This document shows, piece by piece, positions 5,938 through 6,551 of a DNA stretch of 64,000 nucleotides. Below the pieces are notes generated by a model. It was given only the letters and a program-made list of their open reading frames with translations. It had not been told where the DNA came from and searched no databases. The stretch is from Octopus vulgaris (taxonomy: Eukaryota). The stretch spans positions 28,458,001 to 28,522,000 of the forward strand of contig OX597827.1 in the NCBI GenBank assembly GCA_951406725.2. The letters are read 5' to 3'. Numbering within the stretch: the first letter of the stretch is position 1; each line of letters begins with the position of its first letter. Made by a program: the position numbers and the translations under genes.

Positions 5938-6551
5938 ACATTTTACTTGTGCTTCTGAAAACATAATTTATGTCATAAGGTGCTCGAGCTGCCACCAAAA
6001 CTACGTGGGGTCCACGGGATTATCACTCAGACATAGATGCACTCTGCATCGGCAACAGATTGCATTCCCAGAATACAGAATGACACCCTTTAGTGAGCAT
6101 ATTGAGAAATGCGCAAAATAACTACTACCAGAATTTTTAATCTTTCCATTCTATCAATGTGCTATTGGAACACCAACACAAATTAGATTAAACAAGGAAA
6201 CATTCTTCATTGAAAAATATAAGCCTGAACATAACCATTCTAACATTCTTATACGGAGAAACTCATCTCATTACAAAAGGGAAAAGAAATATAAAGCGAT
6301 TATCTCCCTTATACCGGAAGAAATCGCTTAATACCTCCCCCTGCCTGGAACTCTTCTTTGCACTGCATAACGAAGACATGACACGATGTATGTAAAGACA
6401 TTTGAGAAATTTGAAAAGTTAACACGAAACCGGTAATTTCACCCAAAACTATGTTACTATATGCGAAATTTTATAATATTCTTCTTAACGACTTAAATAT
6501 ATTCTTTAACCTTATAAAACAAGCCTTCTGTAGTTATTTCACTCTTTTCTA

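Follow-up and report, generated by a model that had tools for sequence, protein, structure and literature searches.

A U3-A8 minimal hammerhead motif in the terminal repeat of Neptune-like Penelope elements, and mismatches of its 3-8 pair in amplified sister families

In the hammerhead ribozyme the pair between core positions 3 and 8 positions the general acid ribose. Its exchange for U3-A8 is already known, both from natural hammerheads stated to be active in vitro (Perreault et al., 2011; PMC3088659) and from the minimal hammerheads of Schistosoma Penelope elements, with about 1,300 matches (Cervera and De la Pena, 2014; PMC4209133), and for Penelope hammerheads weak, dimer-dependent cleavage has been published along with it (PMC4209133). 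Cores in the supplement of the latter paper start with UUGAAAA or UUGAUAA, and a Saccoglossus family there has UUGAAGA, that is U3.G8. Against an easy equivalence of U-A, a mutant screen found rescue by the G-C swap only (PMC9901934); a Penelope hammerhead needed the 3-8 pair and the element's protein to cut, and hammerhead mutants of the anole element had no effect on insertion in vitro (PMC11167929). The U3-A8 core pair described below is thus nothing new in itself, and the new point is only the mismatch of this pair, together with an extra base next to the core, in amplified sister families.

The window, by which we mean the whole 64 kb stretch of DNA analysed, belongs to a genome of 2.8 Gb. 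An earlier note had placed a U3-A8 hammerhead at 6406-6440, with two relatives further on, and had assigned it to the 3' end of Neptune-type Penelope elements; the motif, the places of all three copies and a setting at the 3' end of endonuclease-bearing (EN+) Penelope-like elements are confirmed here. A loose hammerhead pattern run over both strands of the window gave exactly three matches, copies 1, 2 and 3, and of the 265 matches of an Rfam scan, uninformative for so small a motif, the 150 listed were all microRNA models on microsatellites, with no hammerhead model among them. The features are as follows.

5942 to 6555, plus strand: copy 1, a decayed, 5'-truncated Penelope-like element, with GIY-YIG endonuclease end and 3' UTR/pLTR
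6406 to 6440, plus strand: copy 1 hammerhead, type I minimal, from the sequence and the loose pattern search
6429 to 6434, plus strand: palindrome ACCGGU in copy 1, predicted intermolecular stem III of a double hammerhead, from the sequence and the copy 2 dimer fold
6590 to 6638, strand not given: (TA)n tract past the 3' end of copy 1, likely insertion target
11437 to 13755, minus strand: copy 2, a frameshifted, 5'-truncated RT+EN Penelope-like element of a younger subfamily
11574 to 11612, minus strand: copy 2 hammerhead, core UUGAAAA at 11605-11599, stem II G-C/C-G (GC/GC), GUC
20029 to 20905, plus strand: copy 3, decayed, from an older sister family whose protein is about 56-60% identical in the EN region
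20693 to 20751, plus strand: copy 3 hammerhead, CUGAUGA at 20707-20713, with ccgg

The three copies and their host element

Copy 1, a dead insertion that is truncated and stands solo, shares 76% identity with copy 2 and 74% with a young full-length copy; its GIY-YIG Pfam match is weak, and its hammerhead lies about 180 nt past the endonuclease. Stem I has 5 bp (gaaat/atttc, 6406-6410/6436-6440), the core UUGAAAA at 6411-6417 reads U3-U4-G5-A6-A7-A8-A9, and a 2-bp stem II at 6418-6425 (G-C and U-A, GU/AC) is followed by GAAA at 6426-6429; by hammerhead numbering the predicted cut would fall after 6435 (GUA). All parts of the type I core are present, including G12-A13-A14, A15.1-U16.1 and H17, with the published U3-A8 exchange. 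Copy 2, which is 94.9% identical to a full-length copy over 11437-13683 and has a CX4CX2C linker and CCHH motifs, reaches a stem I of 6 bp only with one extra unpaired U (11606) before U3, and copy 3 has a proximal stem I of only 2 bp, in a shifted register with an extra C (20706), beside a distal helix at 20693-20699/20745-20751; the earlier note had left out both extra bases. Every one of the three copies is 5'-truncated and broken, each has its hammerhead about 170-185 nt past the end of the GIY-YIG match, and a (TA)n tract follows all three. A stop codon inside the core was considered as a feature, as the copy 2 ORF ends at the core UGA, but family copies stop about 135 nt earlier, so that the read-through is peculiar to copy 2.

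Other repeats share the window: a 2.1-kb retroelement pair in opposite orientation (24629-26777 and 35910-38047, 96.8% identity), with more distant relatives, further retroelement copies at 39820-41900 and 21945-23724, pieces of the ORF of another non-LTR retrotransposon, zinc-finger-like in a C-terminal stretch (9657-10797), and a 273-bp palindromic element, MITE-like by shape and 95.6% self-complementary (42843-43115), with a second copy at 3350-3720.

The host element has the order of an EN+ Penelope-like element, RT followed by a C-terminal GIY-YIG with CCHH; homologues of the full-length family protein carry PF00078 and PF01541 (the RT and GIY-YIG domains), and partial tandem and inverted 5'-truncated copies occur in the genome, as they do for such elements. 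Two traits are those of Neptune, a CX2-5CxxC linker before the endonuclease and microsatellite targets. The linker and CCHH together mark Neptune/Nematis-type elements, the linker being common to both clades (PMC8557442), and because none of the 120 homologues listed carries a clade name, it is by the linker that we call the element Neptune-like. In 3 of 20 fetched stretches tandem full-length units have two same-strand motifs 3,468-3,996 nt apart, the upstream motif preceding the first ATG of the next unit by about 230 nt. The short palindromic stem III ACCGGU, the location in a terminal repeat and the two motifs flanking tandem full-length units are traits of the Penelope minimal (dimer) hammerhead, but where that class has a long stem II, bulged by one base between A9 and G10.1, the motif here has 1-2 bp and no bulge, which places it closer to the 'less atypical' variants with a small palindromic helix III (PMC4209133).

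Two ORFs are present in the full-length copies (L117, minus strand, 4773-7088; L122; L129, plus strand, 2948-6262): an ORF1 of 450 residues and the RT+EN ORF, which it overlaps in the -1 frame and which lacks an ATG ahead of its conserved N-terminal motif. In the overlap, in the right register, each of the 3 copies checked has a U-UUU-UUA heptamer, as does a distant family (L117, minus strand, 237-2108), and this heptamer is a candidate for programmed -1 frameshifting; a hairpin downstream of it folds in the main family (-10.3 kcal/mol) and not in the distant one. A frameshifted ORF1 is already mentioned for some Penelope types in the Fig. 1 legend of Craig et al. (2021; PMC8557442). At L044, L050 and L117 different Penelope families nest side by side, so that a single strand carries two unlike hammerheads some 100 nt from each other.

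Our preferred reading, which we hold to be probable, is that 6406-6440 is a family-standard minimal hammerhead in the terminal repeat of an EN-bearing Neptune-like Penelope element, that it likely cuts the tandem transcript as a dimer, with U3-A8 as the predicted stand-in for C3-G8, and that the 3-8 pair is preferred but not required for spread. Two motifs some 3.5-4 kb apart in a tandem transcript would pair through ACCGGU into a double hammerhead, which would cut after GUH, probably weakly and perhaps helped by the element's protein. Cofolding of copy 2 gave the double-hammerhead arrangement (-12.7 kcal/mol, versus -3.3 per monomer), and that of copy 1 gave a longer intermolecular helix and no double hammerhead. 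A Watson-Crick 3-8 pair, U-A, is found in copies 1 and 2 and in most of the family but not in the U3.G8 sister lineages; position 8 would have changed to G, with no change at 3, at least twice in the clade, and it is for this reason that we regard the pair as preferred and not required. The extra base before U3, U3.G8 and A.A in stem II of the young subfamilies would each be expected to weaken cutting.

States of the 3-8 pair and their history

About 230 of some 7,000 motif loci in the host genome were sampled, and the states of the 3-8 pair were counted with patterns. With short stem II and ccgg, U3-A8 with A7 gave 2,484 exact matches and U3-A8 with another base at position 7 gave 148 (at least 70 of them satellite), next to 213 for U3.G8, 9 for C3.A8 and 4 for C3-G8, the reversed controls of these patterns giving 0-1 matches and that of the first giving 0. 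Allowing transitions at U4, A6 and A9 added 26 matches, about 9 per site, which is the level of decay; C3.A8 equals this level and U3.G8 exceeds it about 25-fold. Where stem II is longer and stem III may be any G/C helix, the counts are 4,439 for U3-R8 (control 21), of which 137 are U3.G8 (control 9) and 4,302 are further U3-A8 motifs of several families, and 90 for C3.A8 (control 4); 144 matches (control 15), mostly of one 360-bp retrozyme family, came from a C3-G8 pattern that was broader and differed somewhat in its gap range. U3-A8 is the majority state of the hammerhead motifs visible to the patterns used, which count motifs with a stem III of G and C only. About 20 GGCC matches of 'C3.A8' type were rejected as hammerheads, the 7 fetched having neither a stem I complement nor an upstream Penelope ORF; their start appears to resemble a mariner-type terminal repeat.

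That U3-A8 should be post-insertion decay or a chance match in AT-rich DNA has a negligible probability in our view: the window has 36% G+C and copy 1 is decayed, but the U3-A8/ccgg pattern is not chance, because 2,484 matches face none in the reversed controls, only 4 C3-G8 motifs fit the matching pattern, and young subfamilies at 1.5% divergence carry U3-A8. The earlier note was right to treat it as a real variant, which is also the family consensus.

The same cannot be said of the history that the note had proposed, in which the element at 20707 served as canonical comparator and one lineage switched from C-G to U-A. A search of the 20707 family with position 3 free and G8 fixed found 23 G8 copies, 20 with U3, two with C3 and one with A3, and three more copies are U3-A8; the family is old (median end branch 0.17 in a 27-row tree), and none of 200 bootstrap replicates of this poorly resolved tree joined the two C3 copies as a clade. 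A private change is the best reading of the C at 20707, and with U3.G8 in 20 of 23 and C3 in 2 of 23 such copies, 20707 gives no canonical reference. Nor is U3-A8 confined to one lineage, for it recurs in a more distant Penelope family (51-54% protein identity) and in a retrozyme family, and ccgg in stem III, which the note took as a common trait of related elements, is no lineage marker, a retrozyme family having it too.

The DNA tree was built from flanks only, for the 41 of the 87 motif loci then in hand that had an endonuclease match, and it shows a ladder of U3-A8 subfamilies in which the 11 U3.G8 rows, from two subfamilies, make one tip clade (99/98) and the 3 C3.A8 rows are scattered. 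The two young U3.G8 subfamilies hold 167 exact identical motifs at 0.8-1.5% median divergence, and some of their copies keep long ORFs (775 codons in L118). The protein tree covers 46 of 231 loci and was rooted, by distance, on the family 51-54% identical, which has U3-A8 and a 4-bp stem II; three rows (two of L044, and L050m1500) were ignored, since nesting of different families within one microsatellite had left them mixed or misassigned. The tree places the 20707 family as sister to the main family and gives support (98/96) to an 8-row GCTAACTGC clade, but it leaves the two U3.G8 subfamilies unjoined; the DNA tree alone brings them together. By fewest changes, with the root chosen by distance and the young U3.G8 subfamilies apart in the protein tree, U3-A8 would be ancestral and G8 gained twice, and no C3-G8 ancestor would be needed inside the Penelope clade of copies 1-3. 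Contigs from runs of two other organism codes, which may be very close kin of the host, have both A and G at position 8, with A making up 13,718 of 14,888 and 2,611 of 3,034 of the summed depth.

A single lineage passing by strict covariation from C3-G8 to U3-A8, with 20707 in the ancestral canonical state, is very improbable on these results. It can draw on the C3-G8 consensus of metazoan Penelope hammerheads (PMC4209133, supplement) and on C3.A8 being at decay level in the short-stem Penelope class (9, with about 9 expected); against it stand the composition of the 20707 family and its C3 copies, the U3-A8 state of the outgroup Penelope family, the 4,302 U3-A8 motifs with longer stem II in several families, and the change of position 8 alone in amplified lineages. 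The earlier note had itself named two outcomes that would speak against it: one, U/A as decay, is not seen, and the other, independent variation of positions 3 and 8, is seen in part, position 8 changing without position 3 in 167 U3.G8 and 24 C3.A8 motifs. Its evolutionary inference is wrong in direction and in scope.

Tandem families outside the intact elements show further states. A 94-bp tandem satellite derived from the terminal repeat of the 20707 family (L137, 1781-3198 and 4568-5742, on G000 contig 29, 27.5-29.2 Mb) forms arrays of 12-15 units at 98% identity, every unit having a U3-A8 motif with a stem II mismatch. The 360-bp tandem retrozyme family (L141-L163, L194-L199) has a ccgg stem III and occurs in C3-G8, C3.A8 and U3-A8 forms; one retrozyme subfamily has 24 identical C3.A8 motifs with intact stems on 10 contigs (hand count), its relatives being C3-G8 or U3-A8. 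A second retrozyme family, of about 362 bp, has U3-A8 and a CGCG stem III (L166-L173, L185, L189).

An extra base beside the core

Stem II covariation had been claimed from the change of the second pair between copies 1 and 2, and this change is real, but it is a single event that separates subfamilies, and in a third subfamily the pair is absent. In a hand count of the first 100 listed copies out of 2,484, all on contig 1, the second pair is C-G in 78, U-A in 10, A.A or A.G in 10 and other in 2; one subfamily has a single pair in stem II.

Stem I was scored in its normal register and in the register that leaves an extra base before position 3, with satellite and unassigned motifs left out. 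Of 54 fetched U3.G8 motifs, 46 pair better in the shifted register, 1 does so in the normal one and 7 are ties; the shifted register is also the better one in 29 of 108 U3-A8, in 2 of 20 C3-G8 (both of the 20707 family) and in 2 of 19 C3.A8. Three U3.G8 families lean to it, the young clade, the 20707 family and an old GCGC family (4 of 10 ties), and as copies are not independent the shift counts as three events. A C stands before U3 in 9 of 10 copies of one U3.G8 family and in 9 of 18 of another, and the extra base of the main family is older than its A8G change. The old family, with a 5-bp stem II and GCGC stem III (L207-L213, L165, L178, L179), holds most of the listed U3.G8 long-stem matches, usually with C before U3, its U3-A8 relatives having a normal stem I; no Penelope ORF was found within 2.6 kb of the 10 motifs fetched.

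The extra base suggests a core strand of 8 nt, and one may ask whether such a strand (Y-U-U-G-A-N-R-A) works, the additional pyrimidine serving as slack or as a shifted partner so that G8 is tolerated, or, where it is C, pairing with G8. We think this unlikely. In its favour are the better pairing at +1 in U3.G8 than in U3-A8 motifs, the shift in three separate families, the frequent C before U3 and the order of changes in the main family; but the origins are only three and their copies not independent, the 2-bp stem I of the 20707 family makes the register weak there, in the published drawing the Saccoglossus U3.G8 motif has a normal stem I (PMC4209133), the extra base of the young clade is U, with which a C-G pair is impossible, and a two-step loss of function would fit the pattern as well. 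Its boldest form, to which we would likewise give a low probability, is that all four 3-8 states occur in amplified elements and that a working Y-UUGANGA core has arisen three times, the extra pyrimidine licensing G8 opposite U3 or pairing as C, which would make a stepping stone between C-G and U-A with no dead ribozyme on the way.

The loss of function just mentioned leads to the question of what selection has kept. Between the majorities of the U-A subfamilies 0 of 17 constrained motif positions differ, with UTRs differing by 26-42% (P 0.006 or less under neutrality), and because of this the core can be called conserved over the long run; it is also kept by the family only 51-54% identical in protein. 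For the young subfamilies (UTR difference 6-17%) neutrality is mostly not rejected (P 0.05-0.40). It is conceivable, as a minority view, that in young lineages the motif needs no cutting and is kept as a folded or protein-binding signal, or simply carried along, so that the 3-8 pair and stem I drift. The U3.G8 clade with its 167 motifs in two successive subfamilies, the 24 identical C3.A8 retrozyme motifs and the 10 of the first 100 listed copies with A.A or A.G in stem II would all agree with this, as would the anole mutants that do not block insertion in vitro (PMC11167929) and the insertions next to C3 that impaired a natural hammerhead (PMC3088659). But in amplified subfamilies the changes fall at positions 7, 8 and 17 and in the stems, U4, G5, A6, A9, GAAA and the palindrome being the same in all 9 subfamily majorities, and one young subfamily has a perfect stem I again.

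Meaning and comparison with known systems

The U3-A8 finding itself extends a published variant to another genome. What is useful is a natural allelic series in close, datable subfamilies, namely U-A with perfect stem I, U-A with the extra base, U.G with the extra base, and the C.A of a retrozyme, which makes it testable whether the spread of the element depends on cutting by its Penelope hammerhead: dead mismatch forms would mean that recent amplification can do without cutting, and mismatch forms that cut would mean that the hammerhead core consensus and the search descriptors are too narrow. Our literature search found no discussion of U3.G8 or of an extra base in Penelope hammerheads, which does not establish their absence from print.

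Among the known systems, in the parts of the sources cited, the variants of Perreault et al. likewise show U3-A8 covariation in nature and insertions next to C3, at positions 2a and 2b, but there the insertions are of two bases, in saltern sequences, with impaired cutting and with no tie to G8 or to retroelements (PMC3088659). The UUGAAGA family of Saccoglossus kowalevskii is a natural, Penelope-associated U3.G8 as well, shown with stem I in the normal register and with 6 bp in stem II, whereas here U3.G8 goes with the extra base (PMC4209133, Fig. S3). The PAc hammerhead of the anole Poseidon element also lies in a Penelope terminal repeat, and its 3-8 pair was tested by single and double mutants, but it has a C3-G8 core overlapping the ORF start, where the motif here is non-coding and lies about 230 nt before the first ATG (PMC11167929). 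Neptune/Nematis elements share the C-terminal GIY-YIG with CCHH, the CX2-5CxxC linker, the microsatellite targets and the tandem and inverted copies, and differ in that the full-length copies here have a separate upstream ORF (PMC8557442). The Cercyon hammerheads of Schistosoma mansoni are alike in being type I, in a terminal repeat, with a U3-A8 core, a palindromic stem III, mostly solo copies and opposite-strand pairs; compared with them, the motif described here has a stem II of 1-2 bp, no bulge after A9, ACCGGU as stem III and a host with a Neptune-like linker, and its U3-A8 is the majority state of the genome (PMC4209133).
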